From a virus, in the IMG/VR virus record IMGVR_UViG_3300037499_000265, positions 63,506-127,505 of that record: a DNA stretch of 64,000 nucleotides; one strand, given 5' to 3'. The notes beneath the pieces were generated by a model. It made no database searches. It saw only the letters and a list, made by a program, of their open reading frames with translations, and was not told the origin of the DNA. Within the stretch, counting starts at the first letter, position 1; every line of letters begins with the position of its first letter. Both the position numbers and the translations under genes were made by a program. Below are positions 35,074 through 50,184 of the stretch, piece by piece.

Positions 35074-35115
35074 CAAAGAGCGCTCGGACGTACCGAGCAA
35101 GGAAGGATCACTGAG

Positions 35116-35325
35116 ATGCCACGCACCTACTCGCACACGTTGCGCACACTCACCCTGGCCAGTGCCGTAGTGCTCGCCCTCTTGCTCACCGCGTGCCTAG
35201 TCGGACACGCGGGCAAGCCGAGTGCTGAGCCGAGTGACCAGACCGTGCCCTACTGCCCTACTGAGGACTCCTGCCGTCCGGTGTGGGCGCATGGTGAGTG
35301 GACCATCGTAGAGACATCAGAGTGA
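35116..35325 (+). CDS. Small predicted lipoprotein
   Basis: Signal peptide ending in the lipobox LLLTAC. Confidence 0.6.
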   Translation: MPRTYSHTLRTLTLASAVVLALLLTACLVGHAGKPSAEPSDQTVPYCPTEDSCRPVWAHGEWTIVETSE

Positions 35326-35331
35326 GGCACG

Positions 35332-35396
35332 GCCTAGGACGGTACAGCCGTACGCGCGTCATAGCGCACCTAGGCACTCGGTCGGAGGTACCGACC
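35332..35396 (+). repeat. Intergenic three-stem element, copy 1, plus downstream pentaloop hairpin
   Basis: GCCTAGG...GTACGCGCGTCATAGCGCACCTAGGCAC. Confidence 0.8.
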
Positions 35397-35419
35397 TAGA
35401 CAGGGAAGGATCTACCGTC

Positions 35420-35920
35420 ATGACTGACACGACACCCATCGTAGGCACCCTAGACCTCGCCCCTGGCGACGTCGTACAACGCGTAGGTAGCATGTCACTA
35501 CTCCGCGTGACAGAGATACGTGAGCCATCGCACGCACTCGCACACGGGCTGGTCGTGGTCGGTCACCTGTACAGGTCTGGACTCATGTACTGGTCACCCC
35601 GCGAGCACATCGTGCACGACTGGACCGTATCCGAGCAATGGTACGTCTGGCAGGCAGAGGATGTGCCCGTGGCCAACGTCCTGGACAACGGCGAGGGATG
35701 GTCCGTCGTGAGCACAGAGGACGGCGTGATCACGGTCAATCAACACATGATCGAGAGTGACTACTCTCGATTCTGGCGAGTCTGGCCGCTGAGCTATCAA
35801 CTCAGCGATGCCCTCGCACGCCGCTACCTGCCCGGTGCACGGCTGGTCAGCTCTACCGGCTACGGCGTGACCAGTGCTACCCGTGACCGCCGCGTCTACC
35901 GCGTGCCAAGCGAGGTCTGA
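35420..35920 (+). CDS. Hypothetical early protein
   Basis: GGAAGGA RBS; 166-aa ORF. Confidence 0.65.
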   Translation: MTDTTPIVGTLDLAPGDVVQRVGSMSLLRVTEIREPSHALAHGLVVVGHLYRSGLMYWSPREHIVHDWTVSEQWYVWQAEDVPVANVLDNGEGWSVVSTEDGVITVNQHMIESDYSRFWRVWPLSYQLSDALARRYLPGARLVSSTGYGVTSATRDRRVYRVPSEV

Positions 35921-35921
35921 C

Positions 35922-36011
35922 ATGTACCGTCAAGCCGTCGCGCTCATGATCGGCATGATCCTAGGATCAGCCATCCTGATTACCGCCGTATGGCTCACGT
36001 GGCCACGCTAG
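35922..36011 (+). CDS. 29-aa single-TM peptide (missing from the track)
   Basis: MYRQAVALMIGMILGSAILITAVWLTWPR. Confidence 0.5.
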   Translation: MYRQAVALMIGMILGSAILITAVWLTWPR

Positions 36012-36023
36012 ATATCCAGTCAT

Positions 36024-36064
36024 CGCTACGGTACGGGTGACGCTATCGACCCCGTACCGTAGCG
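36024..36064. terminator. 14-bp hairpin with no U-tract (terminator or processing site)
   Basis: CGCTACGGTACGGG / CCCGTACCGTAGCG. Confidence 0.5.
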
Positions 36065-36122
36065 GTTATCGGGTTATCTAGTTCGGATGTACCGAACTAC
36101 CCGGATAGGAAAGGATCACATC

Positions 36123-36482
36123 ATGGCCCTATCGTGGCATCAGGCCCGAGCGGCAGGCTTACACGCATTGCCGTACGATATCGTCGGCTACCAGTTCCAA
36201 GCCGACACATACTGCCCGGGATGCATCGTTGGGCAACTCCCTACCGGCCCGGATGAGGCATACGACGGTTGGACACTGGCAACCGGTGTCACCATGACGC
36301 CAGAAGACAACTTGACCGAACTCGCGGCCGCATTCAACATCGATCGTGAGGACGAAAGTACTTTCGACCCGGGAGACTTCCCGAAAGTTGTCTTTCGCGA
36401 CTCGGCAGAGGACTACCCCTACGGGCACGACGGCGATGCCGAGACATGCGGCGCATGCGGCGGTACGTTGATTGACCCCTAG
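36123..36482 (+). CDS. Zn-binding hypothetical protein
   Basis: YCPGC...IDREDESTFDPGDFPKVVF...CGACG; RBS AAAGGATCACATC. Confidence 0.7.
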   Translation: MALSWHQARAAGLHALPYDIVGYQFQADTYCPGCIVGQLPTGPDEAYDGWTLATGVTMTPEDNLTELAAAFNIDREDESTFDPGDFPKVVFRDSAEDYPYGHDGDAETCGACGGTLIDP

Positions 36483-36538
36483 CGGCGGTACAGCCTAGGT
36501 CGTCCCGGACGTACGCGCGTCATAGCGCACCTAGGCAC
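36478..36538 (+). repeat. Intergenic three-stem element, copy 2
   Basis: CCTAGCGGCGGTACAGCCTAGGTCGTCCCGGACGTACGCGCGTCATAGCGCACCTAGGCAC. Confidence 0.85.
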
Positions 36539-36585
36539 GGGTCACTAGTCCGCAACGGGCTACCCGACAGAACGGAGTAACGACC

Positions 36586-37107
36586 ATGGTACACACCGAC
36601 ACGACACCGTACGCTCTCACGCGTACGGACGTCACAGCACTGCGCAAGGCAGACAGTGTCACTTTCCATTACAACGCCCTGGCCAACGTCCTGGACAACG
36701 GCGACCGCCGTTCGTTCGTGCGTGCGCACAAGCAAGTCACACTTGCCGAACGTGAGCGTGACCCGTTCTCGTCCGACCGTTTCCACGAGATCGATCTCGG
36801 TCCGGCAGGCGAGCAACACCGTGTGCAGAACTACGGCGATGGTGACGGCCCATGGACTGCCTTTGAGATGATTCACTCGGCACAAGTGACCGAGACATGG
36901 CGAACCGCCGCGCGTTCACTCAAGGCAGGCGAGACAATCGCCATGGTGTGGACACGCGACAACAACAGCGAATTGACTCGCGCGGCAGGCTTGCACGTGG
37001 ACTCGCTGACCATCGCGGTCGGAGTGAGAGGCAAGCCCGCGCGGCACTACCACGTCCATACCAGTATCACTCTGGACAACAGTGCCCGCATGATCCGACC
37101 TGCCTAG
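36586..37107 (+). CDS. Hypothetical early protein
   Basis: ACGGAG RBS; 173-aa ORF. Confidence 0.7.
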   Translation: MVHTDTTPYALTRTDVTALRKADSVTFHYNALANVLDNGDRRSFVRAHKQVTLAERERDPFSSDRFHEIDLGPAGEQHRVQNYGDGDGPWTAFEMIHSAQVTETWRTAARSLKAGETIAMVWTRDNNSELTRAAGLHVDSLTIAVGVRGKPARHYHVHTSITLDNSARMIRPA

Positions 37108-37184
37108 CGGCGGTACAGCCTAGGTCGTCCTGGAGCGTACGCGCGTCATAGCGCAACCTAGGCACTAGGTCGGAAGTGCCGGCC
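37103..37184 (+). repeat. Intergenic three-stem element, copy 3, plus pentaloop hairpin
   Basis: Near-identical to copy 2. Confidence 0.85.
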
Positions 37185-37203
37185 GTTACGAAAGGATCAC
37201 ATC

Positions 37204-37359
37204 ATGGGTAAGACAGAATCGCGCCGCGTGGCCACGGTCAAACGTCGCACACGTGTGACCGCGCGCCGACAGGCTACCCGCGAGCTGTGGCGTGGCAATT
37301 TCGACGCCATGGCCACTGGTGAGCGCATGGTCCGCCGCGTGCGCCGCGAGGGCGAGTGA
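37204..37359 (+). CDS. 51-aa arginine-rich peptide (missing from the track)
   Basis: RBS AAAGGATCACATC-ATG identical to that of 36123; MGKTESRRVATVKRRTRVTARRQATRELWRGNFDAMATGERMVRRVRREGE. Confidence 0.65.
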   Translation: MGKTESRRVATVKRRTRVTARRQATRELWRGNFDAMATGERMVRRVRREGE

Positions 37360-37362
37360 GCC

Positions 37363-37503
37363 ATGCTCGCATTCCTAGAAGTGCTGGCCAGTGTGGCAGG
37401 CGCCATGCTCGGTCTGGTCATTTACGGCCGCTACAGCAACGATGCTGCCCGTGAGCAGAATCGTCGTAACCTCGCCAGCATCGACAACAAGTTAGGGCGG
37501 TAG
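37363..37503 (+). CDS. 46-aa single-TM peptide (missing from the track)
   Basis: MLAFLEVLASVAGAMLGLVIYGRY... Confidence 0.55.
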   Translation: MLAFLEVLASVAGAMLGLVIYGRYSNDAAREQNRRNLASIDNKLGR

Positions 37504-37505
37504 TC

Positions 37506-37706
37506 ATGAGCAGACTCACTCTCACCATTGAAACGGACAACGCGGCATTTCAGGACGGCCAGCTAGGTCCCGAGCTCGGACGTATCCTCCACAACGTGGC
37601 AGAACGAGTCATCAAGCTGGCAGCGTACGGTCCGCATATCGACGGCCGACCCGTCGATATCAACGGCAATACGGTCGGGTCGTTCCGGCACGAGGTCACC
37701 GAGTGA
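37506..37706 (+). CDS. Small conserved-looking phage protein
   Basis: LTIETDNAAF...ELGRIL...DINGNTVG. Confidence 0.7.
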   Translation: MSRLTLTIETDNAAFQDGQLGPELGRILHNVAERVIKLAAYGPHIDGRPVDINGNTVGSFRHEVTE

Positions 37707-37933
37707 CGAACCTAGCGGCCGCCATGCCTCACGGTATGGCGGCCGTGCCGCGTCCTAGGTGCGGTCGGCGCAGCTCGGTAGCGCCAGTAGCGGCGGTAGC
37801 GACCTACGATGACACGGCATGCCTCGACTGCCAATGGCTTAACGCGCGACTGATCGAGCGTCCTAGGTGGGACACGGGAGAGTACGCGGCAACGTTGATT
37901 CGCCACATTCTCGCCCGGCACAGCCGGCGATAA
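37703..37933 (+). CDS. Hypothetical protein
   Basis: GTGA-coupled; contains CLDC. Confidence 0.45.
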   Translation: MTNLAAAMPHGMAAVPRPRCGRRSSVAPVAAVATYDDTACLDCQWLNARLIERPRWDTGEYAATLIRHILARHSRR

Positions 37934-37953
37934 GGCGATATCAATTCACGGAC

Positions 37954-38040
37954 TCCGTCGTTCCACGGCACCAGTTCGGGAAATTGCCGGCCTTGCAGAT
38001 TCCGTCATTCCACGGCACCAGTTCGGGAAATTGCCGGCCT
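37954..38040. repeat. Two 40-bp direct repeats (period 47, one mismatch)
   Basis: TCCGTC(G/A)TTCCACGGCACCAGTTCGGGAAATTGCCGGCCT at 37954-37993 and 38001-38040. Confidence 0.9.
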
Positions 38041-38170
38041 CCCCTGTCGGTCGAAACGGCAGCATTACGGAAAATGACCCTTTTTGGACGTTCGGCGCAT
38101 CGCGCGCGATTCGGACAAGTCGTACAACGCGCGCTTGATCTTAAGGCCGGTGGAAAACGGTGGCAATCGA

Positions 38171-38349
38171 CAATATTATGTCAACCTACGGCGCTCTGAC
38201 CAGCACCGATGCCAAGATCCAACTAGTTATGTCAACCTACGGCGCTCTGACCAGCACCGATGCCAAGATCCAACTAATTATGTCAACCCGCACCGCTCTG
38301 ACCTACATCGATACCGACCGATTTCAAGATCAAACTAATTATGTCAACC
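38171..38349. repeat. Iteron-like array: four copies of (AACTA[A/G])TTATGTCAACC with periods 51, 51 and 61
   Basis: TTATG starts at 38176, 38227, 38278 and 38339; the first two 51-bp units are nearly identical. Confidence 0.9.
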
Positions 38350-38420
38350 TGCAGCGGCATCCAGGTCACCGCTAGACATATCTACACATATGACCATCAA
38401 TGCCCGGTCTAAACTCCCTC

Positions 38421-38449
38421 TTGACACTCCCGCCGTCTCTTGCTACTGT
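38421..38449 (+). promoter_or_regulatory. Promoter TTGACA-N17-TACTGT (extended -10)
   Basis: Family consensus, followed by an ANGTR hairpin and an AGGAGG RBS. Confidence 0.85.
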
Positions 38450-38495
38450 AGTCAGTGAGTCGGACGTACCGACGACCTTTTTAGGAGGTAGCGCC

Positions 38496-38657
38496 ATGGC
38501 CCAAATTCACGTTTGCATCGACTGTGGAGAGTCGGTGGACCATCTGGAGGTCTTCCCCGGACCCCGGTGTCTCGACTGCTGGCGACCGATCGGCGAAAGG
38601 CAGGCGGCCACCATGACCGCCATCGACCTGGCACGAATGTGGGGATCGACCTCGTGA
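38496..38657 (+). CDS. Small Zn-finger-like protein
   Basis: CIDC...CLDC; AGGAGG RBS. Confidence 0.65.
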   Translation: MAQIHVCIDCGESVDHLEVFPGPRCLDCWRPIGERQAATMTAIDLARMWGSTS

Positions 38658-39055
38658 GCGACTACCAGGGCGAGCACCAGCCGGACGAGACCGGTGCACC
38701 GCTACACGACGTAGAATCGGTGATGCCGGACTACTACGCCCACCCCGAGTACTACCGCACCGGTGACGACGAGTGCGACGGCCCGAGCGAGCGAGCGATT
38801 CTCCGGAGTCGTGGCAATCCCGACGCCATGGTCTGGATACGGCGCGCGGTACCGCCCAAGGTCTACGACCTCCCCGGACCGAGCATCCGCCCGGGCGACT
38901 GGGTGACGACCAGCAGGCCGTACGCGCGCCGGCACGCCATGCACGCCACCGACCCCCGCCAGGACTGGCCGATCTCATCCAAGCGCGTGCCGGCCCGAGA
39001 TCTGCGCACGGACGGCAACTCGATCAACGAATGGGGATGGTTCCCCAATGCCTGA
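38654..39055 (+). CDS. ADP-ribosyltransferase-like (R-S-E) protein
   Basis: WIRRAVP...IRPGDWVTTSRPYARRHA...VPARDLRTDGNSINEWGW; GTG start. Confidence 0.6.
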   Translation: MSDYQGEHQPDETGAPLHDVESVMPDYYAHPEYYRTGDDECDGPSERAILRSRGNPDAMVWIRRAVPPKVYDLPGPSIRPGDWVTTSRPYARRHAMHATDPRQDWPISSKRVPARDLRTDGNSINEWGWFPNA

Positions 39056-39260
39056 CCCGTACGGCATCCCCGGACTGGAACGGTGCGAAGACTGTCGTAA
39101 GGTCTGCATCTGTCCTGGACCGGAGTGCCAGTGCATGATCATCGATGCGGCCGCTGCCGTGTTGCTATGCCACTCATGCACCGACGTTCGCGACCATGGG
39201 TTGACGCCCTGGTCACAACTTGATACTGTCTTACCTACCAGGTCGGACGTGCCGGCCTAG
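39048..39260 (+). CDS. Cys-rich small protein
   Basis: CEDC..VCIC...CQC...CHSC; its 3' end overlaps the next promoter. Confidence 0.45.
   Translation: MPDPYGIPGLERCEDCRKVCICPGPECQCMIIDAAAAVLLCHSCTDVRDHGLTPWSQLDTVLPTRSDVPA
39201..39229 (+). promoter_or_regulatory. Promoter TTGACG-N17-TACTGT
   Basis: Family consensus; its leader is shared with 41114-41148. Confidence 0.8.
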
Positions 39261-39276
39261 ATCGGAGAAACTCCAC

Positions 39277-39927
39277 ATGTCCCTACCGTTCACCATCACC
39301 CCGGGCCGCCAGTCGCCAACTGGCCGCGCTCACTGGCTCGACATCGCCTTTCACGACGGCCGGAAGGTCACCGGCAACGCCCGAATGGCATCTCACGTCA
39401 ACACCGACACTCACCCGGGCAACCACGACGAACCGCCGAGACACGTTTTCGTGCTCGACCTCTCGCCCACCCTGGTCGACTCAAACGGCAACACGGTCTA
39501 CCGCACCGCCGACCCTGACGCCGATGAGATCCAGGCCATGCACGCGGTCATCGCCCACCCGGTACGCGTCAACGGTGGCGCCTACCGCGGCACTCTCTAC
39601 ATCGAACGCGGCTACGACTCAGCCGCCGGCCGCCACATCGAGCCCGGCTCACACTGGTACCCCGGCGCCTGGACGTGGCGCGTGGCATACTCGTCCATCG
39701 AGCGCCTGGACGGCCCCAAGGTGACCGATGCCGCACGCTCGACCCTGCACGACCTGGCTCACCAGCTCGCCGAGACTCTCGGCACTCCCGAGCGCCTGCA
39801 CGATGACCGTGTGAAAGACGCTCAGTACAAGCACACCGAGGCCGTAGAGGCCGAGCGCAAGGCTCAACAACGCGCAAGCGAGACCTGGCAGCTCCTCTCC
39901 GCGCTGACGAATCCCCACAAGTCCTGA
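39277..39927 (+). CDS. Hypothetical protein with a C-terminal coiled coil
   Basis: Start re-called at ATG 39277 after a CGGAG RBS. Confidence 0.7.
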   Translation: MSLPFTITPGRQSPTGRAHWLDIAFHDGRKVTGNARMASHVNTDTHPGNHDEPPRHVFVLDLSPTLVDSNGNTVYRTADPDADEIQAMHAVIAHPVRVNGGAYRGTLYIERGYDSAAGRHIEPGSHWYPGAWTWRVAYSSIERLDGPKVTDAARSTLHDLAHQLAETLGTPERLHDDRVKDAQYKHTEAVEAERKAQQRASETWQLLSALTNPHKS

Positions 39928-39930
39928 CCC

Positions 39931-39960
39931 TGTCGCCGTGTCCGTCGTGACACGGCGACA
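39931..39960. terminator. Perfect 12-bp hairpin directly 5' of the tRNA-like RNA
   Basis: TGTCGCCGTGTC-CGTCGT-GACACGGCGACA; no U-tract. Confidence 0.5.
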
Positions 39961-39962
39961 AA

Positions 39963-40036
39963 GGCCCCGTATCTCAAATGGCAAGAGAGACCCGAGAACA
40001 GGGGTCTATATGCCGGTTCGAGTCCGGTCGGGGTCA
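39963..40036 (+). ncRNA. tRNA-like RNA with a non-canonical anticodon loop
   Basis: Acceptor GGCCCCG/CGGGGTC, D-arm TCTC/GAGA with GG, T-arm GCCGG-TTCGAGT-CCGGT. The anticodon arm GACCC-GAGAACAG-GGGTC lacks the Y32-U33 pattern. Confidence 0.75.
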
Positions 40037-40077
40037 CTGGAGAGCCGGACGTACCGGCTCGAAGGAGGGTAACCATC

Positions 40078-40179
40078 ATGGCCCACCAGCTCATCGCAAC
40101 CGCTCTACTGGCCATCGGCGGGGCGACCCCCGTCGTCATCGTGGCCAGAATGCTCCACGACCTGATCAGGAGGTACTGA
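40078..40179 (+). CDS. 33-aa TM peptide (missing from the track)
   Basis: AAGGAGG RBS; MAHQLIATALLAIGGATPVVIVARMLHDLIRRY. Confidence 0.55.
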   Translation: MAHQLIATALLAIGGATPVVIVARMLHDLIRRY

Positions 40180-40182
40180 ACC

Positions 40183-40887
40183 ATGACTAAGACGATCACA
40201 CTGCCCGAACTGAACGCCGATGTACTCACCTGGTCCGACGACTACGGCCACGCCCGCGTCCATGTGGCACACGGTGAGTACGTCTATCGGGTGACAGTCC
40301 AGCGCGACACCTACCCGGAACCGCCCGATGGCGACTACCTGGCACCAATGGTCTACCTGTCGGATGAGTACCGGCAGTCGTACGAGCACGCCGACGACGT
40401 CTATCGGGCATGGGAGTATTTCCGGCATGTGCATCGACACGCTGGCCGTCTTTGCCTTTTCGATCCTTACGACCTGTTGGCCCGGTACCTCCGGATCTAC
40501 TACGGCACGACCGTGGTCGAGTTCGCATCGCATCTCGGCTACAGCGGTCCGGCCGGCGTGTTCTTCGACACCGCCGAATGGCGAGAGCTCACCGGCTGGC
40601 ATCGAGACCCGGGAGAGATCCCCGGCGCCGGTGGCAACCCCGCGGCCGAATCCCGGTCGGTCTGGCATTCCTACGCCGATGGCGACGTCTACGGCGTGAT
40701 CGTTGAACGCCGAACGACCGGCATCACGACATGGGCCGATGGCCGAGTCGAGAGCGTCACCGAGTGGAACGAGCCGGACGACGATATCTGGTCGATATGG
40801 GGATACTACGGCGACGACGAGATCCCCTACATGCTCGCCGAGCACGCCACCGCGTGGATCGAGAACGACAAGCCGAAGGGACTCTGA
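40183..40887 (+). CDS. Hypothetical protein
   Basis: AGGAGG RBS; WxxYADGDVYGVIVE...WSIWGYYG motif. Confidence 0.75.
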   Translation: MTKTITLPELNADVLTWSDDYGHARVHVAHGEYVYRVTVQRDTYPEPPDGDYLAPMVYLSDEYRQSYEHADDVYRAWEYFRHVHRHAGRLCLFDPYDLLARYLRIYYGTTVVEFASHLGYSGPAGVFFDTAEWRELTGWHRDPGEIPGAGGNPAAESRSVWHSYADGDVYGVIVERRTTGITTWADGRVESVTEWNEPDDDIWSIWGYYGDDEIPYMLAEHATAWIENDKPKGL

Positions 40888-40891
40888 GTCC

Positions 40892-41083
40892 ATGGACGAG
40901 TACACCGAAACCCTGTTGACCACCGTCCAGGCCCGACGTTCCGACGACTCTGTCAAGACAGACCTAGAACTGATCTGCACGCAGTGCCCGGACGACGCCA
41001 GACCATTGTGTGACATCGAGCACGACGACACCCTCTCTGTACTGGTGGCCGTCGCACTGCACCATGCCCGAACCGAGCACTAG
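40892..41083 (+). CDS. Small Zn-binding hypothetical protein
   Basis: LICTQC...LCDIEHDDTLSVL...HH. Confidence 0.6.
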   Translation: MDEYTETLLTTVQARRSDDSVKTDLELICTQCPDDARPLCDIEHDDTLSVLVAVALHHARTEH

Positions 41084-41109
41084 ACATCCCGGTACAAACC
41101 TGCTACTGT
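41081..41109 (+). promoter_or_regulatory. Promoter TAGACA-N17-TACTGT
   Basis: Family consensus. Confidence 0.8.
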
Positions 41110-41156
41110 TACGCCTACCAGGTCGGACGTGCCGGCCTAGAACGGAGACACCGACT

Positions 41157-41828
41157 ATGTTCACAGTCACCGAGACCATTCACCACGGGCAGTATCGCAA
41201 CGTCCAGTCCGCCAGCGCTGACACTCTCACCGAAGCGGTCGACAAGGTCGTAGCGACGAGCCCGTACAACGTCGCCATGTCCCGACCGAAGATCAATGCC
41301 CTGACCGCGGCACTCGCCGAGCACGGCAGTGCCGATCACGGTTGGGCACGATACGTCCTCACCGCCGACTTGCGAAACGAACAGTCGAACGACCTCCACC
41401 CCACCGGCGAGTGGTTTCACCTGCCGTCCATGACTCCGCACTCCCCAATCGATGAGGACGCCGGAGATATCGGCGGTGACGTCCAGGCCGGACCCGCCTA
41501 CGCCATCTCGTGGCGTCGCCGTACCGACGACGACTGGGAGACGCTGACCCTGTACCACTTCGCCGCCGATGACGATGACGCCACGGTGCCGAACGCGAGG
41601 CAGGGCGTCCGGGTCGAGACCATGATCGAACTCGTCCGGCACACGGACGAGAACGACCCCGGCACGACCGAACTCGACTCTGACTGCCGGTACGAGTCCG
41701 GCATCACCGCCGACCCGCCCGGCGAACTCGACCATGACGCCGCACTCGCCAAGGCGAACGAGATGGCCATCCGGTACACCGTCGACAACCTCACCACCGA
41801 CCCTCAGACCCTCTGGTGGCCGTTGTGA
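41157..41828 (+). CDS. Hypothetical acidic protein
   Basis: Start re-called at ATG 41157. Confidence 0.65.
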   Translation: MFTVTETIHHGQYRNVQSASADTLTEAVDKVVATSPYNVAMSRPKINALTAALAEHGSADHGWARYVLTADLRNEQSNDLHPTGEWFHLPSMTPHSPIDEDAGDIGGDVQAGPAYAISWRRRTDDDWETLTLYHFAADDDDATVPNARQGVRVETMIELVRHTDENDPGTTELDSDCRYESGITADPPGELDHDAALAKANEMAIRYTVDNLTTDPQTLWWPL

Positions 41829-41871
41829 ACCGCGACGGGCTGCGCACCTGACACCCCTAGGAGGTATCACC

Positions 41872-42117
41872 ATGGCAAAGATCACCACCGACCAGCAGGC
41901 GGTCGACGCCGTCGCGACCCTACTCGGCACATCCGCCGAATGGGACGACGCAGCCGACTTCCTGGACGACATCGCCAACATCGTCGGACAGGTTCGACCG
42001 CACCCCGGCGATGCCGCAGCCACCTACCGGAACGACTTCCGCAAGGCGACCGGCCGTGAGGTCCCGATCGGATGGGACTTCACCGACGACGACACCGACG
42101 ACGACGACGACGACTAG
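41872..42117 (+). CDS. Small acidic protein with a poly-Asp tail
   Basis: AGGAGG RBS; MAKITTDQQAV...DDDTDDDDDD. Confidence 0.7.
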   Translation: MAKITTDQQAVDAVATLLGTSAEWDDAADFLDDIANIVGQVRPHPGDAAATYRNDFRKATGREVPIGWDFTDDDTDDDDDD

Positions 42118-42128
42118 GAGGTATCACC

Positions 42129-42497
42129 ATGGCACTCAAGACCGACCTGAACGTCAACGACGCCATCGACATGGCCGCCGAACTACTCGCAAGCAAGACG
42201 AGAGCCGAGTACGAACGCGGTGTACTGGAGACTCTCGGCTGGCTGACCGGCCTGACCGACGACGCCGATCACTCGTACCTCGCGGTACGACTGCATCTCG
42301 ATCTCGATCGGCTCTACCCGTCGAACGGTGAGCCCCACATCTCGACTTGGATCGGCGATGACGGCGCACACGTCGTCCAGGTCGACACCGTCGAAGACAC
42401 CGGCCACGTCCGGGTGAACGTCAACGACGGAACCGTGTTCGACGCCGACCCCGAGATCGATCCGGGCGTCGGTCTACGGCCCGACACGTCGCCATGA
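42129..42497 (+). CDS. Hypothetical protein
   Basis: Same 21-bp RBS context as 41872. Confidence 0.7.
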   Translation: MALKTDLNVNDAIDMAAELLASKTRAEYERGVLETLGWLTGLTDDADHSYLAVRLHLDLDRLYPSNGEPHISTWIGDDGAHVVQVDTVEDTGHVRVNVNDGTVFDADPEIDPGVGLRPDTSP

Positions 42498-42895
42498 CTA
42501 GAACAAGTGTTCGACGCTGGAACGCCCAGAATCGCCCTCAGAGCGCCGCAGAGCGTTCTAGGCACTCCCGGACGTCCGAAGTCCTGAACGCGCCGAGAGA
42601 CCCCGTCCTGGCTTACGAGGCACCGGGTTTTCGCGTGACGTTCTACGTCAGACAGTCGGAAGCGACGTTCACCACCGACCCGTATCGCGTCGCCGATGGC
42701 TTCCTGACCCACCGGCTAGGCCGCAAGGTCGTCGACGGCGGCCCGGACGTCCAGCGCTACCTGGACCGCTTCCTGAGCGACTACCTCATGCTCAAGGGCG
42801 CCGGATGGACGCGCTACGGCCAGAACGACCCTCACCGCACCCGCGACGCCTACGACGAGGTACGGGAAATCATTCATGAACGACTGACGCTGTGA
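42494..42895 (+). CDS. Hypothetical protein
   Basis: ATGA-coupled. Confidence 0.55.
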   Translation: MTRTSVRRWNAQNRPQSAAERSRHSRTSEVLNAPRDPVLAYEAPGFRVTFYVRQSEATFTTDPYRVADGFLTHRLGRKVVDGGPDVQRYLDRFLSDYLMLKGAGWTRYGQNDPHRTRDAYDEVREIIHERLTL

Positions 42896-43953
42896 GCGCC
42901 GCTCTGCTGGACGATCTCCGTTCAGCGCTGTGTCGCTACGTCGTCATGCCGGACGACGTGGCGGCCGACGCGGTGACGCTCTGGATCGCCGCCAGCCACG
43001 CCCAGACCGCCTGGACGTCCGCGCCGAGGCTCGTCATCAAGTCGCCCGAACGACGCTGTGGCAAGTCCCGCCTGCTCGACGTCCTGGAAGCCACCTGCCA
43101 CGCCCCGTTCATGGCGTTCAACGCCACCGTGGCCGCCGTGGTGCGCTCGATCGGCGCCGACGACCCTCCCACCCTGTTGTTCGACGAGGCCGACGCCATC
43201 TGGCCCGTGAACGGTAGCGGCGGTAGCGCCGAGAACCTACGCGCCCTGCTCAACGCCGGGTTCGGCCGCGGTCGCCCCGTCGTCCGCGTGGCCGGCACCA
43301 GCGCCACCGCCGAGGTCGTCAAGCTGCCCTCGTTCGCCATGGCCGCACTCGCCGGCATCGGAGACACCATCCCGGACACCGTGACCGACCGCGCTGTGGT
43401 GATCCGGATGCGCCGCCGCCTGCCGCACGAGTCCGTCTCGCCGTACCGCCAGCGTCGCGACGGCGCCGCGCTGCGCGAACTCAGCGTCCAGCTCGGCGAC
43501 TGGACGACCGGCGAGATCGAGAAACTCGCCGACTACGAGCCCGCTCTGCCCGTCACCGATCGAGCTGCCGACGTCTGGGAGCCGCTGGTCGCCATTGCCG
43601 ACCTGGCAGGCGGCAGCTGGCCTGAACGAGCTCGTGTGGCAGCAGAGTCGATGACCGCCGCAGCCATCGAGGACGAGGCCGAAGCCGGCCGGACCGAGCA
43701 CCGCATCCTCGCCGCGCTCCGCGACGTGTTCGACGCCGGTGGCCATGACCGGATGACGACCGCTGGCGTTGTGACCGACCTCGCGGTGTTCGGCATCACT
43801 GTCGACGCGACCGCTCTGGCTACTGCTCTACGGCCCTACGAGGTCCGTCCGCGGAACCTGAAGATGCCCGGTGGTGCCGTACTCAAGGGATACCGCCGTG
43901 AGGACTTCGCCGATGCCTGGACCCGCTATCTGACAAGTACGTCGGAGGGATGA
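42892..43953 (+). CDS. DUF3631-family replication-associated P-loop protein
   Basis: SPERRCGKSRLL, TLLFDEAD, ALLNAG, ALAGIG, DRAADVWEPL. Confidence 0.8.
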   Translation: MSAALLDDLRSALCRYVVMPDDVAADAVTLWIAASHAQTAWTSAPRLVIKSPERRCGKSRLLDVLEATCHAPFMAFNATVAAVVRSIGADDPPTLLFDEADAIWPVNGSGGSAENLRALLNAGFGRGRPVVRVAGTSATAEVVKLPSFAMAALAGIGDTIPDTVTDRAVVIRMRRRLPHESVSPYRQRRDGAALRELSVQLGDWTTGEIEKLADYEPALPVTDRAADVWEPLVAIADLAGGSWPERARVAAESMTAAAIEDEAEAGRTEHRILAALRDVFDAGGHDRMTTAGVVTDLAVFGITVDATALATALRPYEVRPRNLKMPGGAVLKGYRREDFADAWTRYLTSTSEG

Positions 43954-44029
43954 TCGAATCGACCCCTGCTCAATTGTTCGCTACTACCGCATTACCCGAC
44001 AGTCTAGACATTCTGTCAAACTCGTCTAA

Positions 44030-44137: not shown

Positions 44138-44156
44138 AGCGGCACGTTTTCGCAGG

Positions 44157-46859
44157 TCAGAAGGGGTTGTCAGGGTCGATTCGGACATCAGCGTTCATCT
44201 CAGAACTGGCCCCTGAAAAGCCCACTCCCCACCATGCTCTGTACCTACCTGGCACGGCTGATAAGTGAGTCCATGTCTCATCTGCAGATGGTCGGGAAAG
44301 TACCCCTACGCCCTTTTGGTCGTGTCGTACGTTCATCTGCTCGACACGATGGTTCCGGAACATGTCGTGACCCGTCAGCCGGGAGGCAATCAGCTTGGCC
44401 GACCATGGCTTGTGACCATGTGACTCCAGCCACGAGTTCAGGTCCAGGATCAGGTCGCCGGCCATCGTGTGACGATCCTTTCCGAACTCCAGACGATCAT
44501 CGATGTACGCCAACACCTGATCCGACTCCCGCTGCCACTCCCTGGTGTCCGCCTCGACTCGCACCGGCACCGTCGGCATCACCCGCCGCGCCGCGTACCA
44601 CCGCATCGCCCCTTGCACCATCCACGCCAGCGCCGCCTCTCGCTGCCCGTCCAGGCCCGCCGCCAGCCGGTCCCGCAACCTGGGATCGCCGACACGGTCG
44701 AGCTCCGATTCCAGCGGCTCCCCGGGCTTCCGGTAGATGTACGGGAACGTCACCAGGGCCAGCCGACGCCAGGTGCCGTGGTCGGTCTCCTCGATCGAGG
44801 GCTTGTAGTTCGTGCTCAGAAACACCGAGTGTGTCGCGGCGAAGGTCACCGAGTCCTTCCGGATGTACCGGGCCGTCACGTGCGGCGTCCCCAGTATCTT
44901 CTTCAGCCGCTGCACGTTCAGTCGGCGAGCCTCCGGAGTTTCCTCCACCAACGCGACCCGTGTCCCCCGCAGGTCCATCAGCTCGGTCGGGTGGTCACCC
45001 GGGTTCGCCATCAGCACCCGATCGCTCAACAGCCGGTAGTAGTCCCCGAGCGCGCCGCCGATTCCCACGAAGATGCCCGTCTTGCCGTTCTCGCCAGCGC
45101 CGTACTGAACGACCAGTTTGTCGTCTGGCACCATGTGGCCGGTGATTGCCTGTCCGTAGCGGACGGCCATCCAGTCCCGCACGTCGTCCGGGATGGACTC
45201 CAGCGCCTTGTCCCAGTCCGGATGCCGGAAGCCCGCCCGGTACTCCGCGACCGTCATCTTGGTCATCAGCAGCTCGGAGTCGTGATCCCTGATCTCGCCG
45301 GTCTGCAGGTCCACCACACCGTTCGAGCAGTTCAGCAGGTCCGGATGCTGATCGAAATCCGTCGTCTCCTTCTCCACGATCCCTCGTGTCAGCAGGACCA
45401 CATCCTTCTGCCGTCGCGCCGAGGTGAGCACCGCCTTCCAGCCCTTGTGCTTCGGCCCGTCCAGATCACCCCGCCTCACCCGCTCAGCCAGCTTCGCTCG
45501 AGCCCACCGCCCGACCATCTCCAGCACTCGCTCCTCCGGGCACGTCTTCCACCGCTTGCCGTTCCAGGCCAGCCATCCGAGCCCTTGGGTCCAGCAGAAC
45601 CCCCCCGCGCACACGTTCAACGCGAAGCTCTCCGCCAACCAGCGGTCGGTGAAGCCCCCACGGTCCCAGTCTCCCGGCGAGATGGCGTCTCCCATCTCGA
45701 CCGTGTCACCGTTGCCACCTTCACCCCCGTTACTATCGCCATTCTCACCGTTTTCACCGCTGCCGCCGTCAGGATCACTCTCATCGGCCTTGACCGCTTC
45801 GAGCTCGTCGTCGGTGAGCACCTTGCCCGGCCCGAACGGGTCTTTCGGATCGCTGCGCACCTTGGCCGGCTCATCGCAGGCGCACACCGTCTCCATTGCC
45901 CGCTCCCGAGCGAGCTTCATCATCAGTCCACCACGGGCGAATCGTCGCCACTCGCCCTCCGCGGTCGTCCTCGCCCGCGAGTCCGCCACACCGGCGATGT
46001 ACGCCTTCCGTCCTGCCTTCAGCACCTCTGGCACGCCTCGATGCCCTTGATAGGCGGCCTCGATCAGCGCCAGCACGTCGTTGCGCACGTGATCGTACGC
46101 ACTGCCGTACTCTCGCCCGGCGGACGCCTCGATCCTTGTCTCCAGCCGTTCGACGTATCGACATGCTGGCCCGTCTCGCGCCTCTCGCATGAACTCCCTG
46201 ACCGCATCCGAGGACGCCAGTCCCGTCTCACCCTCGACCTTGCCCGTTCCGATCTTCCCGATCGCTTGCAGCCCGTCGACCCATGACGTCGGCAGGTCCG
46301 GCAGATCCTGAACCCGTGGGATCTCCCCGTCCTCCCACTCGTACATCCGTCCTTCCGGGTGCATGCTGGGCCAGGTGATCGCGTACCGGTGGAAGTACTG
46401 CACGATCTCGATGCCGGGACCTGCCACGCCGGGGAATCGCTCCCCGGCGGGCACTCGGTAGAACCTGATTCCGCTGAGCCCGTCGAATCCTCTGGACGAG
46501 GACCGCGGCGCAGTCGGCAGTTCTCCGAACGTCTCGATCAGCATCTCGAGTGTCTCGCCGCCGTGCTTGTCGCCGTAGTCGTCGACGTCGATCCCGATGA
46601 CGTCGTCGCTCATCCGCAGCACGATGTTGTACCGACGTCCGGCCGCAGATGCGTTCTCGATCTTGTGCTCGATCTGCTCGTCGGTCGGGTACTTGCCGTT
46701 GTACCCGGTGTACCCGGCGGGCGGGTTGCCTTTGGCTCGATATGGCGCGAACAGCGTTCCCTTCCAGCCTGCCGCTCGATACTCCGGCGCCAGCGAGAAC
46801 GGGTCGACGTCGACCTCGTCCACCGTCGTCTCAGTGCTGTTGTCGATCTCGTCGCTCAT
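44157..46859 (-). CDS. Bifunctional primase-polymerase fused to a D5/P4-like SF3 helicase
   Basis: N-terminal VIGIDVDDYGDKHGG...RFYRVP...YAITWPSMHP. C-terminal YGAGENGKT, ALVEETPE, LSTNYKP, TWRRL. Confidence 0.9.
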   Translation of the reverse strand: MSDEIDNSTETTVDEVDVDPFSLAPEYRAAGWKGTLFAPYRAKGNPPAGYTGYNGKYPTDEQIEHKIENASAAGRRYNIVLRMSDDVIGIDVDDYGDKHGGETLEMLIETFGELPTAPRSSSRGFDGLSGIRFYRVPAGERFPGVAGPGIEIVQYFHRYAITWPSMHPEGRMYEWEDGEIPRVQDLPDLPTSWVDGLQAIGKIGTGKVEGETGLASSDAVREFMREARDGPACRYVERLETRIEASAGREYGSAYDHVRNDVLALIEAAYQGHRGVPEVLKAGRKAYIAGVADSRARTTAEGEWRRFARGGLMMKLARERAMETVCACDEPAKVRSDPKDPFGPGKVLTDDELEAVKADESDPDGGSGENGENGDSNGGEGGNGDTVEMGDAISPGDWDRGGFTDRWLAESFALNVCAGGFCWTQGLGWLAWNGKRWKTCPEERVLEMVGRWARAKLAERVRRGDLDGPKHKGWKAVLTSARRQKDVVLLTRGIVEKETTDFDQHPDLLNCSNGVVDLQTGEIRDHDSELLMTKMTVAEYRAGFRHPDWDKALESIPDDVRDWMAVRYGQAITGHMVPDDKLVVQYGAGENGKTGIFVGIGGALGDYYRLLSDRVLMANPGDHPTELMDLRGTRVALVEETPEARRLNVQRLKKILGTPHVTARYIRKDSVTFAATHSVFLSTNYKPSIEETDHGTWRRLALVTFPYIYRKPGEPLESELDRVGDPRLRDRLAAGLDGQREAALAWMVQGAMRWYAARRVMPTVPVRVEADTREWQRESDQVLAYIDDRLEFGKDRHTMAGDLILDLNSWLESHGHKPWSAKLIASRLTGHDMFRNHRVEQMNVRHDQKGVGVLSRPSADETWTHLSAVPGRYRAWWGVGFSGASSEMNADVRIDPDNPF

Positions 46860-46882
46860 GATCGAACTCCCCTCCGGTTCGA

Positions 46883-47116: not shown

Positions 47117-47257
47117 GAGGCACTCCCCATAGAGGATGAATGATCCGTGTTTGTCAGTCAAGCGCTGACTGCAAGACGTGAGGCGCCACGCTACCCCTTC
47201 CTCGCATGCTCGGCAACCGACACACGCCGTCCCCAACGAACCCACATCGATCTCAAA

Positions 47258-47285
47258 TTGACATCTCACCGATACGCACTACAGT
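47258..47285 (+). promoter_or_regulatory. Promoter TTGACA-N16-TACAGT giving a near-leaderless mRNA
   Basis: A GTG start lies 8 nt after the -10 element with no RBS. Confidence 0.65.
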
Positions 47286-47293
47286 GGTTCGCT

Positions 47294-47449
47294 GTGAAGA
47301 CAACGAGTGTACGGCTCCCAGACGACCTGTACGAACAGGTAGCCAAGTTGGCGGCCGACGAACGCCGCAGCCTCAGCTCACAGATCATCGTGTTGATCGA
47401 GGCAGGACTGAACGCCATCGAGCAGGCAGGCGAAGCGACCGATGCCTGA
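47294..47449 (+). CDS. Arc/ribbon-helix-helix DNA-binding protein
   Basis: MKTTSVRLPDDLYEQVAKLAADERRSLSSQIIVLIE. Confidence 0.8.
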   Translation: MKTTSVRLPDDLYEQVAKLAADERRSLSSQIIVLIEAGLNAIEQAGEATDA

Positions 47450-49328
47450 TCCTGTCGATCCTCGCGGGTCGCGCCTGTTTAGTTTGCAAGATCGTGTCTA
47501 TATGTACGAGGTACAAGACGGTCTCTGTACATGGTGCGGCCAGTCTCTTCAGGACGACTCACAAGCTGATCATCGCATCCGCTGGGCTGATGACGGCCCT
47601 ACCGACGTGTGGAATGGTCAACTTCTGCATCCAGAATGTCACAGACAGAAAGAGCGTGTAATGACGAACCTTCGCCAATGGCAGACCGAGTTTCTCACCG
47701 TCTTTGAGCGTCACGGTAAGCAACATTTCTTGCTCGTTGCTCCCCCGGGCGTCGGGAAGACTCGCGGTTGCACGGCCGCATTCGAACGTTGGACGGCTAA
47801 GCCTAGGCGCAACCCGCTGTGCATCGGCGTTTCACCCTCCATCCAGATCATCCGCGGATGGGCGAAGGAGGTAGCCCCGCTTGGGAAGACTGGAGTCATT
47901 GGACTGAACCCTCGAGAACGGAAGATAGAGACATCAGGCGGGAGGCTTGATTTACTTCCAGTGAGCGTAAGTCCGCCAGATGACTTGCGTTACTGGCTTC
48001 TCACCTACGGTTCACTCCTTAGCAGAGCTAAGGCATTCGATACGATCTGCCAGAAACGCGACGTCTTTGTCATCCTTGATGAACCACATCACGCCGAAGG
48101 CGGCGACGACCCAGGTGCATGGGGTAAGGCTGCTGCAACCGCGTTCGATCGTGCCGACAAGATCCTGATGCCGACAGCAACCCCGTGGAAAACGCCGGGA
48201 ACACCGCTCCCATTCATCGATTACGACGATGAAGGTCAAGCTCAGGCGGATTACCGCGTCCATCGTTGGCAAGCGATTGAGGCCGGTTGGATTCGACCTT
48301 TGAATTTCGAATATCTCGATGCAGACGTTGGCTGGCAGAATGTCGAGTCTGGGGACTCGTTCAGCAGTCGTGTTTCAGAAAAGGGGATGCTGGGCGACAA
48401 AGCACTCAGCACAGCGATCAGGAAAGATGACTATATCCTCGATGCATTACGTCGAGGAATGAGTCAGATGGAGCACCAACATCGTCAAGGCTTGGATACT
48501 ACGATGATCGTTATCGCTGATGACGTGATGAAGTACCACGCCAAACAGGTGGAAAAAGTTGCCAATCGTGAATGGCCTAGTGAAGCCGTACGGGCTACAG
48601 GTGACGATCCGAATGCTCACACGGTCATCGATAGGTTCCGGGAGCGGAAATCGCGTGCTCGGATCTTGATCACCGTAGGTATGGCCGGCGAGGGGTGCGA
48701 CATCCCGCATCTTGGCGTCCTTGTCTGGCTCACCGCACGTCGGACCTACCTGTTCTTCGTCCAGGCCACTGGTCGCATAATACGCAAGTCTTCCGAAGAA
48801 CCGCGCGCTCATGCAGCCGTCATCCTACCCAACCATCCAGACCTGCTCGAGGCGGCAGCGAAGCTCAAAGATGAGGAAGTCCCTCCGCTGAGAAAACCCG
48901 AGAAGCCCGGTGAACGGGATTGGACGCCGCCAGAACAGCAGACGTACGAATCGTGGGTCGATAATGTACATGTCGCGTCGTTCGCGGACGAGAGCCGCGA
49001 CATCAAGGTCGATTCAAAGATTGATCGACTCGCTACTGCCCATCATGTTCCTACCAGTGTCGTCTATGACATCCTCCAGGAGAAAGTGCCACCGCCGCCA
49101 CCAGAAAGAGCACGAAAGACCGGTGACGCTGTTGCCATGCGTGAGAGGATCAACGCGAACCTCAAGTTCTACGCCATGAACAACGGTCGCGACTTCCCAG
49201 GTGCTCACAACAAGGCAAAGGATAAGGCCGGTATCGGCCGTGGTCGGACCTTGGAGAGCTTGACCAACGACGAATTGGACCGACTCTTGAGTGCCTCTGA
49301 AGAGATGCGAGAGGAAGCGACGCCATGA
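47442..49328 (+). CDS. HNH nuclease fused to an SF2 (ResIII/DEAD-like) helicase
   Basis: CTWC..ADHRIRWADDGPTDVWNGQLLHPECH; APPGVGKT; ILDEPHH; PTATP; GMAGEGCDIP; VQATGRIIR. Confidence 0.85.
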   Translation: MPDPVDPRGSRLFSLQDRVYMYEVQDGLCTWCGQSLQDDSQADHRIRWADDGPTDVWNGQLLHPECHRQKERVMTNLRQWQTEFLTVFERHGKQHFLLVAPPGVGKTRGCTAAFERWTAKPRRNPLCIGVSPSIQIIRGWAKEVAPLGKTGVIGLNPRERKIETSGGRLDLLPVSVSPPDDLRYWLLTYGSLLSRAKAFDTICQKRDVFVILDEPHHAEGGDDPGAWGKAAATAFDRADKILMPTATPWKTPGTPLPFIDYDDEGQAQADYRVHRWQAIEAGWIRPLNFEYLDADVGWQNVESGDSFSSRVSEKGMLGDKALSTAIRKDDYILDALRRGMSQMEHQHRQGLDTTMIVIADDVMKYHAKQVEKVANREWPSEAVRATGDDPNAHTVIDRFRERKSRARILITVGMAGEGCDIPHLGVLVWLTARRTYLFFVQATGRIIRKSSEEPRAHAAVILPNHPDLLEAAAKLKDEEVPPLRKPEKPGERDWTPPEQQTYESWVDNVHVASFADESRDIKVDSKIDRLATAHHVPTSVVYDILQEKVPPPPPERARKTGDAVAMRERINANLKFYAMNNGRDFPGAHNKAKDKAGIGRGRTLESLTNDELDRLLSASEEMREEATP

Positions 49329-49936
49329 GTACGATGCCTATTCACGATGTCACTGATCCTCAAGAAATTGGACGGTACGTATACCAGGCCAAGAATGCCG
49401 TTCAGGCTGCCGATCCGGAAGCTCTGCTCGACGCCGTCGGTGTCCTGCTCCAGCACGACAACTGGAAGCGCTGGGTAGATCCCTACAGTGGTGACGAGTA
49501 CACCTGGCGAGACTTCCGTAAGTTCGTGGAGGAGCGGTTGTCGACCACGGTCGAACGCCTGATCGGAGCGCTGTCAGCAGCGCCGGGGCTACGGCAGGAA
49601 ATCGAGGATCTGGCGAGCGTAGGTCGGGGCGGAGACCGACGCAGCGAGGATTTCAAACAGAACAATGTACCGTTTGAAAAAGCCACAGGTAACAACGCCT
49701 CAAAGGACATGCGTCGTCTCGGTCGCGACCGGCCCGATCTTGCTGCCCGGGTCGACGACGGTGAACTGACCGTGAACGCCGCGATGATTCAGGCCAAATT
49801 TCGTCATCCCACCGTCAGCGTCCCTGTGAACCGTCCCGATTCAGCGGCTCGCACGTTGCGTAAGCGCATGACGCCTGATGATCTGGCACGTCTTGTCGAA
49901 CTGTTACAGCTCAAAAACGAGACTGAATCAACATGA
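49325..49936 (+). CDS. DNA-binding protein with a GGDRRS motif
   Basis: GRGGDRRS...RRLGRDRPDLAARVDDGELTVNAA. Confidence 0.65.
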   Translation: MSTMPIHDVTDPQEIGRYVYQAKNAVQAADPEALLDAVGVLLQHDNWKRWVDPYSGDEYTWRDFRKFVEERLSTTVERLIGALSAAPGLRQEIEDLASVGRGGDRRSEDFKQNNVPFEKATGNNASKDMRRLGRDRPDLAARVDDGELTVNAAMIQAKFRHPTVSVPVNRPDSAARTLRKRMTPDDLARLVELLQLKNETEST

Positions 49937-50118
49937 CTACCGTGCCGTACCCAGATGAGATCAGCCGCGCCGAGGCTGAGTGGATACTGGACGAGGGAGC
50001 GCGTCGTTGGCTCGGGATGTCCGGCGAGGAGTTTGCTCGCCGGCACGATCGCGGAGATCTGCCTAGGTCAGCAATGGTCGAACACCTGAGCGATCTTCTC
50101 GACCTTTCTAGGCAGTAG
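49933..50118 (+). CDS. Small helical hypothetical protein
   Basis: Coupled; ARRWLGMSGEEFARRHDRG. Confidence 0.55.
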   Translation: MTTVPYPDEISRAEAEWILDEGARRWLGMSGEEFARRHDRGDLPRSAMVEHLSDLLDLSRQ

Positions 50119-50123
50119 GGTAG

Positions 50124-50152
50124 TTGACACACCGCCGATCCTCTGATACTGT
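50124..50152 (+). promoter_or_regulatory. Promoter TTGACA-N17-TACTGT
   Basis: Family consensus, followed by an ANGTR hairpin and an AAGGAGG RBS. Confidence 0.85.
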
Positions 50153-50184
50153 CGTCTCATCGGACGTACCGAAGGAGGGCGACA

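Follow-up and report, generated by a model that had tools for sequence, protein, structure and literature searches.

The virus record IMGVR_UViG_3300037499_000265 of IMG/VR, from an uncultured, probably actinobacterial phage, is 127,505 bp long. Its second half (positions 63,506-127,505; hereafter the window, the whole stretch of 64,000 nucleotides (nt) that was analysed) carries a small hairpin with the pentaloop A-N-G-U-R just upstream of the Shine-Dalgarno (SD) sequence of nine genes, and a tenth copy lies elsewhere in the genome. The hairpin is far in excess of chance and always in the sense orientation, it is placed between a promoter or a strong upstream structure and the SD, and its outer stem covaries around a fixed loop. 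We see about an even chance that the hairpin is a cis-acting RNA tag in the leaders of these ten messages, which would be read by an RNA-binding factor and would govern their stability or translation. It is most likely such a tag, a signal of a well-known type whose present form has not been catalogued so far.

The hairpin family and its RNA-level signature

The core of the element, CGGANGTRCCG, has 13 exact matches in the window, whereas 100 dinucleotide-preserving shuffles gave 0.80 matches on average and three at most, none of them reaching 13. Nine of the matches are leader copies on the plus strand, with core starts at 35085, 35383, 36084, 37171, 38461, 39244, 40046, 41124 and 50161 (Table 1). 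All nine had been placed before start codons in a preliminary description of this DNA, and all proved real, each with an SD and an ATG. The remaining four (13352+, 40483-, 41925- and 44860+) are located within or antisense to coding sequence and have neither SD nor start codon. Two of them, at 40483-40493 (-) and 44860-44870 (+), share an identical 5-bp stem (UCCGG/CCGGG) antisense to coding genes and are probably due to chance. The whole-genome motif scan that the same description had proposed yielded 18 core matches and added the tenth leader copy. It is found on the minus strand outside the window (genome loop start 16990), after a GTGACA-N17-TACAAT promoter and before an open reading frame (ORF) of 78 amino acids (aa), again in sense. 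In total, 10 of the 18 core matches are at most 45 nt upstream of a predicted start, all ten in sense, while 0.66 would be expected (binomial p ~1.5e-10). One-mismatch variants of the core were found in none of the leaders of the whole genome, and the hairpins therefore form a family of ten in which the 11-nt core is strictly invariant except for N and R. The hairpin is restricted to these ten leaders, eight of which are clustered within one 6-kb block, and the genes behind them represent non-structural messages.

The nine hairpins of the window have stems of 4-8 bp, including G-U pairs, and energies of -3.0 to -12.3 kcal/mol. The inner three stem pairs are always CGG/CCG and the pentaloop is A-N-G-U-R in all ten copies; in the window the loops are ACGUA (four copies), ACGUG (two copies), AGGUA, AUGUA and AAGUG (one copy each). 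The outer stem variants listed previously (GCT/AGC, GGT/ACC, TAGTT/AACTA and GAGC/GCTC) were confirmed, as were the wobbles in three copies, which are U-G pairs in the hairpins with cores at 37171, 39244 and 41124. In all ten copies the hairpin ends 0-10 nt before a purine-rich SD and 12-23 nt before the start codon, the same spacing just 5' of the SD as first described.

RNAalifold recovers the consensus hairpin independently, with compensatory changes in three stem pairs. Pair 7-19 is UA in six copies, UG in three and CG in one, and is broken in none, while GC, CG, UA, AU and UG are all seen at pairs 6-20 and 5-21. Altogether, 79% of the stem cells pair, and sliding the partner columns lowers this share to 25-43%. 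For covariation, the score is 0.319 vs. 0.167 in shuffles and was reached by 4 of 500 shuffles, a control that is not to be taken as a probability. Conservation of the loop is asymmetric, A1, G3 and U4 being invariant. U-G pairs would be A-C mismatches on the opposite strand, which favours RNA over a DNA operator. The earlier suggestion that the element works as RNA is thus upheld by the sense orientation of all ten copies, the asymmetric loop, the U-G wobbles, the three compensatory pairs and the four copies that have no recognisable promoter. As judged from the sequences, support for a transcript-level signal instead of a symmetric DNA operator is moderate and not strong, because the copies are paralogues of one genome and two of them (39244 and 41124) have an almost identical 36-nt leader.

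The latter two are copies 6 and 8, whose leaders are near-identical over 36 nt (CCUACC, hairpin, AGA-N-CGGAGA) ahead of unrelated proteins of 216 and 223 aa and follow promoters with different spacers (window positions 39195-39290 and 41075-41170). The shared leader suggests cassette copying or gene conversion; together with the differing spacers it may also be counted for selection acting on the leader.

Promoters, upstream elements and genomic setting

A scan for actinobacterial SigA-type promoters (TTGACA-like, 16-18 nt spacer, TAnnnT) detected approximately 30 in the genome, mostly TTGACA-N17-TACTGT, and six of these are followed by the hairpin. Five copies had been reported to lie right after a promoter, and the corresponding promoters were found at 35046, 38421, 39201, 41081 and 50124 (TTGACA-like, N16-17, TAC..T). 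In the six promoter-proximal copies the -10 hexamer ends 8-14 nt ahead of the CGG core, and with transcription assumed to start 7 nt past the -10, an unpaired 5' overhang of 1-6 nt is predicted before the stem. The predicted probability of the hairpin is above 0.8 in seven of the ten leaders, and the SD is largely open in the predicted folds.

Four copies have no recognisable promoter, and each of these is located 4-14 nt past a strong structure: a three-stem element in two cases, a perfect 14-bp hairpin and a tRNA-like fold in one case each. Provided that RNA is processed at these upstream structures, all ten hairpins would come to lie close to an mRNA 5' end, and every copy may then mark a primary or a processed one. 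Their placement at the predicted ends speaks somewhat for a role that depends on the 5' end.

The remaining SigA-type promoters, about 20 in number, have leaders that are rich in A/C and unstructured. These contain a loosely conserved motif, TYGAYA..AGACAACCGAC, which begins approximately 5-10 nt past the -10 and might act as a DNA operator or as another RNA tag. As other promoters have different leaders, the hairpin marks one promoter class and not all of them. The notion of a phage-wide operator had to be given up accordingly, and a 5' hairpin as a general trait of the promoters of this phage was rejected. A role of the hairpins as terminators was also set aside as improbable, since a T-run is present in only one of the ten copies. 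U-tract terminators scanned over 33.5-51.5 kb were at chance level, and the sole hit in the hairpin block was copy 5 itself.

Table 1. Leader hairpins, promoters and upstream structured elements (window coordinates, unless stated otherwise).
Feature	Position (strand)	Sequence	Setting	Gene behind
Hairpin copy 1	35082..35098 (+)	GCUCGG-ACGUA-CCGAGC	stem begins 10 nt past -10 of promoter 35046	ATG 35116, 69-aa ORF with lipoprotein-like signal
Hairpin copy 2	35380..35396 (+)	GGUCGG-AGGUA-CCGACC	4 nt past three-stem element 35332-35375	ATG 35420, 166-aa ORF
Hairpin copy 3	36079..36099 (+)	UAGUUCGG-AUGUA-CCGAACUA	14 nt past perfect 14-bp hairpin 36024-36064	ATG 36123, 119-aa ORF, phrog_7422
Hairpin copy 4	37168..37184 (+)	GGUCGG-AAGUG-CCGGCC, one U-G pair	4 nt past three-stem element 37118-37163	ATG 37204, 51-aa Arg-rich ORF
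Hairpin copy 5	38459..38473 (+)	GUCGG-ACGUA-CCGAC	after promoter 38421; sole copy with T-run behind	ATG 38496, 53-aa ORF with CxxC...CxxC motifs
Hairpin copy 6	39240..39258 (+)	AGGUCGG-ACGUG-CCGGCCU, one U-G pair	after promoter 39201	ATG 39277, 216-aa ORF
Hairpin copy 7	40042..40060 (+)	GAGCCGG-ACGUA-CCGGCUC	4-5 nt past tRNA-like fold 39963-40037	ATG 40078, 33-aa hydrophobic ORF
Hairpin copy 8	41120..41138 (+)		after promoter 41081	ATG 41157, 223-aa ORF
Hairpin copy 9	50160..50172 (+)	UCGG-ACGUA-CCGA	4-bp stem touching SD AAGGAGG; after promoter 50124	ATG 50185, 152-aa DUF6011 protein
SigA-type promoter	35046..35073 (+)	TTGACA-16-TACGCT		
SigA-type promoter	38421..38449 (+)	TTGACA-17-TACTGT		
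SigA-type promoter	39201..39229 (+)	TTGACG-17-TACTGT		
SigA-type promoter	41081..41109 (+)	TAGACA-17-TACTGT		
SigA-type promoter	50124..50152 (+)	TTGACA-17-TACTGT		
Three-stem element copy 1	35332..35375 (+)	outer stem GCCUAGG/CCUAGGC, variable hairpin, GCGC-GUCAUA-GCGC	directly upstream of hairpin copy 2	
Three-stem element copy 2	36493-36536		followed by a different hairpin, AGUCCG-CAA-CGGGCU	
Three-stem element copy 3	37118..37163 (+)		directly upstream of hairpin copy 4	
tRNA-like fold	39963..40037 (+)		after 12-bp hairpin 39931-39960; directly upstream of hairpin copy 7	
Second leader class, examples	window 52770, 56087, 57996, 62236; genome 6208, 10971, 24683, 40201, 19491(-)			

The three-stem element is intergenic and has an invariant core, GUACGCGCGUCAUAGCGCA. 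Its invariant 19-mer matches a single soil or sediment metagenome contig of a distant phage, L224, eight times on the minus strand. The outer stem in L224 is GCCACGG/CCGUGGC as against GCCUAGG/CCUAGGC here, i.e., two compensatory pairs, and each element is followed there by A-C-U-G-A and then by a covarying hairpin of another family (e.g., CCUCACC-CAACAGA-GGCGAGG and CCUUGC-UACAAGG-GCAGGG). The start region of L224, GAAAGGAUUCACC-AUG, is close to GAAAGGAUCACAUC-AUG of this phage. In both phages the element is trailed by A-C-(U/G), a hairpin and an SD, although they share almost no protein similarity otherwise, and neither the ANGUR hairpin nor a SigA-type promoter was found in the 13 kb of L224 that were scanned. 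The slot (structured element, hairpin, SD) is thus common to the two phages and the hairpin that fills it is lineage-specific, which fits a lineage-specific reader. L224 also encodes Arg-rich small proteins behind three-stem elements. A 17-mer of the element is absent from IMG/VR, and its 86 scattered single hits in unrelated GTDB taxa look like chance.

By analogy, the three-stem element may be a processing signal, its outer stem and trailing A-C-U resembling the acceptor end of the adjacent tRNA-like fold. The latter is called by ARAGORN as a lone cloverleaf (39963-40037) with a 4-base anticodon in an 8-nt loop, flanked by a stop codon, a long hairpin and hairpin copy 7; even at E<=5 it is missed by the tRNA model of Rfam. 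A promoter function of the element, served by a polymerase or sigma factor of the phage, was rejected because the genome yielded neither, with the reservation that the polymerase search was also blank on the control genomes. An SD context, (G/A)AAGGAU(U)CAC..AUG, is common to four leaders (35100-35119, 35405-35422, 36108-36125 and 37190-37206) and to most of the eight L224 leaders; it pairs with the extreme 3' end of 16S rRNA.

No relative carrying the hairpin was found in any of the following searches. Megablast and blastn of the hairpin block and two leaders against 50,697 phage records gave no match. In the IMG/VR relatives of the primase (36-49% identity) only chance matches to the core inside coding sequence were seen, and pattern scans of IMG/VR (the hairpin with three outer pairs; a -10 box plus core) gave single hits in loci unrelated to the phage by tblastn. 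Profile scans of IMG/VR and JGI metagenomes with the block proteins found nothing. The protein encoded from 41157 has two homologues (~52% identity) on Logan contigs. Rhodococcus phage E3 contains a homologue of the protein encoded from 36123 but no core match. Rfam at E<=5 over 34,000-42,500 gave nothing relevant, and at the gathering threshold the window and L224 yield tRNAs only; known ribozymes and other Rfam families match neither the hairpin nor the three-stem element. Some further resemblances were dismissed as well. Mimicry of the anticodon arm of tRNA-Thr (N-G-U followed by a purine) is unlikely, the loop being 5 nt instead of 7 and lacking U33. An IRE-like loop was rejected because loops of that type, CAGUGN, require a C preceding the A. 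The string CGUACCG is identical to a 7-nt stretch of helix 45 of 16S rRNA, a match within chance.

The whole record has direct terminal repeats and a G+C content of approximately 62%. The gene layout is derived from a crude gene caller made for this work together with Pfam, and gene starts from the caller and inspection. Late genes, including the large terminase, occupy the minus strand up to window position 34,613, and the plus-strand block of small ORFan genes extends from 35,116 to 43,953. In addition, there are a primase/D5-type gene on the minus strand and another plus-strand block with a helicase-HNH gene, the DUF6011 gene and RtcB. No cultured phage close to this genome was found among the 50,697 phage records by megablast or blastn, and the protein relatives point to Actinomycetota. 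The RtcB ligase ORF (50650-52761, 703 aa) matches the Pfam RtcB domain in two stretches, and mycobacteriophage RtcB proteins align to it in two pieces with ~60% coverage, which suggests a large insertion, e.g., an intein.

A putative reader and the alternatives

The stem of the hairpin would give each message a base-paired 5' end and would thereby hinder decay that depends on the 5' end, i.e., pyrophosphate removal of the RppH type followed by attack of RNase E or RNase J. RppH, RNase E and RNase J exist in actinobacteria. According to a review (PMC3997798, citing Emory et al., 1992), mRNA is stabilised by stem-loops at its 5' terminus, and enzymes of the RppH type require two to three 5' nucleotides that are unpaired. 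That the loop and closing pairs do not vary implies a sequence-specific reader, and they would be the docking site of one RNA-binding factor. Such a factor would read the ten leaders as one regulon and set, in one direction or the other, their lifetime, their access to ribosomes or both, probably when the infection programme switches. Where no promoter precedes the hairpin, its 5'-proximal place would result from cleavage of the RNA at the upstream structure, be it the three-stem element, the tRNA-like fold or the long hairpin.

The factor could be of phage or host origin, and the sole candidate that can be named is the 51-aa product of 37204..37359 (+), which is encoded behind a hairpin. With 14 Arg (27%) and a pI of 12, it is the most Arg-rich of the 206 predicted proteins, and on this composition it is a candidate hairpin-binding peptide, a lead only. 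Pfam, PHROG and Atlas gave no lead for this ORF, and the peptide does not align to an Arg-rich small protein of L224.

Several points weigh against the proposed tag and its reader. The start points are estimates from the promoter consensus, accurate to approximately +/-2 nt, and processing at the upstream structures is purely presumptive. In three of the ten leaders the minimum-energy fold prefers another pairing, leaving the hairpin a probability of 0.09-0.40, and the two copies that touch the SD have weak stems (-3 and -4 kcal/mol). Covariation was measured only among paralogous copies of one genome, two of them near duplicates. A fixed loop is not required in 5' stabilisers of the ompA type, and the stabiliser and operator parts are therefore two separate hypotheses. 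As for the candidate peptide, it has no detectable homologue and its Arg-richness may merely reflect GC-rich coding; the searches turned up no RNA-binding domain.

A bolder version of the tag combines two parts. The three-stem element is counted here as tRNA-like, since its 7-bp acceptor-like stem is followed by A-C-U as in the adjacent tRNA-like fold. Host RNase P or RNase Z-type enzymes would cut at this tRNA-like punctuation (three-stem element and tRNA-like fold) and leave the ANGUR hairpin 5'-terminal, and the Arg-rich phage peptide (37204-37359) would bind the ANGUR loop on the ten leaders to switch their stability or translation together. We regard this combination as improbable; if true, an actinophage would possess an mRNA regulon that regulates itself and is punctuated by tRNA-like elements as in mitochondria.

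Among the alternatives, the hairpin could be a pure translational operator: a phage repressor would bind it near the SD, block the 30S subunit and shut the genes together, and the 5' end would be irrelevant. The same logic is known from T4 RegA, the MS2 coat protein/replicase hairpin and the ThrRS operator upstream of the thrS SD. The distances of the hairpin end from the start codon (12-23 nt) and the SD (0-10 nt) in all ten copies coincide with the upstream edge of the ribosome footprint, the loop and closing pairs are invariant as for a protein site, four copies are internal to a presumed polycistronic RNA, and the hairpin-plus-SD unit is conserved between two leaders. We nevertheless hold such an operator to be unlikely, as the spacing to SD and start varies by ~10 nt and the SD is never within the hairpin and is largely unpaired in predicted folds. 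Moreover, it leaves the regular place right after the -10 or the upstream structures unexplained, and no repressor candidate of known fold was found.

A dimeric phage regulator might instead recognise the double-stranded DNA, binding the inverted repeat TCGG-N5-CCGA located roughly at positions +5 to +25 of the promoters, and block or modulate transcription. Six of the ten copies are directly downstream of SigA-type -10 boxes, in the classical roadblock position, and the share of promoter-proximal copies would rise to eight of ten if the three-stem element is an unrecognised promoter; L224 has no SigA-type promoter near its eight three-stem elements. A T7-type RNA polymerase or a sigma factor was, however, not found in the genome (the polymerase search detected nothing in control genomes either), and the copies behind the tRNA-like fold and the 14-bp hairpin lack a promoter. 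A DNA site is made rather improbable by the single orientation of all copies relative to the gene and by the asymmetric conservation of the central 5 bp. Its departures from symmetry are U-G wobbles, i.e., A-C mismatches on the opposite strand, and the outer arms vary by compensation with no half-site kept.

Quite improbable is a repeated boundary of mobile promoter/leader cassettes (as in the PeSL of T4-type phages), which would have been dispersed through recombination or gene conversion and been kept only as a generic structure or insulator. The hairpins do flank small ORFan genes in a variable region, the leaders of copies 6 and 8 are extended and near-identical before unrelated genes, and PeSL cassettes also combine a sigma-70 promoter, a stem-loop and an SD (PMC2839356). 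Beyond copies 6 and 8, however, only the 11-nt core is common, which is too short for homologous exchange, and the flanks covary and are not copied. PeSL stem-loops are terminators of variable place without a fixed loop, and a T-run is present here in one copy of ten.

Finally, the preliminary description had likened the hairpin to lambda boxB, in which case an Arg-rich N-like peptide would bind it and make RNA polymerase resistant to terminators. The two are alike in that a short stem with a pentaloop is found in early leaders, downstream of early promoters, and an Arg-rich small protein is encoded nearby, here the most Arg-rich of the genome (51 aa, 27% Arg) behind one hairpin of the block. 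The loops of lambda boxB are G-first and GNRA-like (GAAAA, GAAGA, GACAA) on a 5-bp stem, unlike A-N-G-U-R. There is no exact match to the boxA consensus in the genome, and by eye no shared motif in the 40 nt upstream of the ten hairpins. The analogy thus fails and antitermination of the nut type is very improbable: the hairpin occurs in ten copies, one per gene at each SD and not one or two per operon, apart from copy 5 the block has no U-tract terminators to read through, some copies have no terminator downstream, and the peptide matches neither Pfam nor PHROG.

Comparison with known systems

The leader tag preferred here resembles stabilisers of bacterial and phage mRNAs (ompA/papA type) in that a small hairpin is predicted a few nt from the mRNA 5' end, upstream of an accessible SD. 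Such stabilisers act within approximately 2-4 unpaired nt of the 5' end, and the overhang here is 1-6 nt in the six promoter-proximal copies with predicted starts, while for the internal copies it depends on presumed processing. Stabilisers of this type (Emory, Bouvet and Belasco, 1992, as cited in PMC3997798) work by pairing only and lack a conserved loop, whereas all ten copies here keep the loop and three closing pairs unchanged. In addition, four of the copies are not promoter-proximal, and the 5' ends are predicted only.

The PeSL cassettes described by Arbiol et al. (2010; PMC2839356) similarly consist of a host-type promoter, a stem-loop and an SD, with small early ORFan genes of a variable region behind them. 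Their stem-loops are terminators or attenuators with G/C runs, in varied positions, often inside or upstream of the promoter, and with no fixed loop (PMC2839356). The hairpin here is always downstream of the -10 where a promoter is present (six of ten copies), has a fixed loop and is followed by a T-run in one copy only. The targets of T4 RegA and the coat-protein hairpins of MS2 and PP7 are comparable, being small RNA sites in the initiation region through which one or several phage messages are controlled. RegA sites are, however, unstructured and overlap the start codon, and in MS2 and PP7 the single hairpin of the genome includes the start codon, in contrast to the ten hairpins upstream of SDs in this phage.

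The nearest signals described so far are the SAS and ESAS of Cluster K actinophages, which likewise recur, always in the same orientation, shortly before the translation starts of some non-structural genes. The signals have been suggested to act in translation, and ESAS forms an inverted repeat immediately 5' of the motif that contains the SD (Pope et al., 2011; PMC3203893). It consists of imperfect 17-bp inverted repeats of conserved sequence with a variable spacer of 4-13 bp (PMC3203893), while the arms here are 4-8 bp, their outer parts covary and the conserved part is a loop fixed at 5 nt. The 13-bp SAS, GGGATAGGAGCCC, has no match in the genome at <=1 mismatch and two at <=2 mismatches, and the start context (G/A)AAGGAU(U)CAC..AUG recalls the idea of the SAS. 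The function of SAS and ESAS has been without demonstration since 2011 (PMC3203893, PMC12699233), and post-transcriptional control in actinobacteriophages is almost unexplored.

Should the loop turn out to be irrelevant, the hairpin would be one more 5' stabiliser of local interest only. If a factor reads it, a new RNA-protein recognition pair would be at hand, together with a large lytic phage that times a block of early genes without a change of promoter. The genome offers a clean case, with host-type promoters in two leader classes, one of which carries an invariant-loop hairpin amenable to mutation, transfer to reporters and use as bait. Being compact and portable, the hairpin could also become a leader element of expression tools for high-GC Gram-positive hosts.

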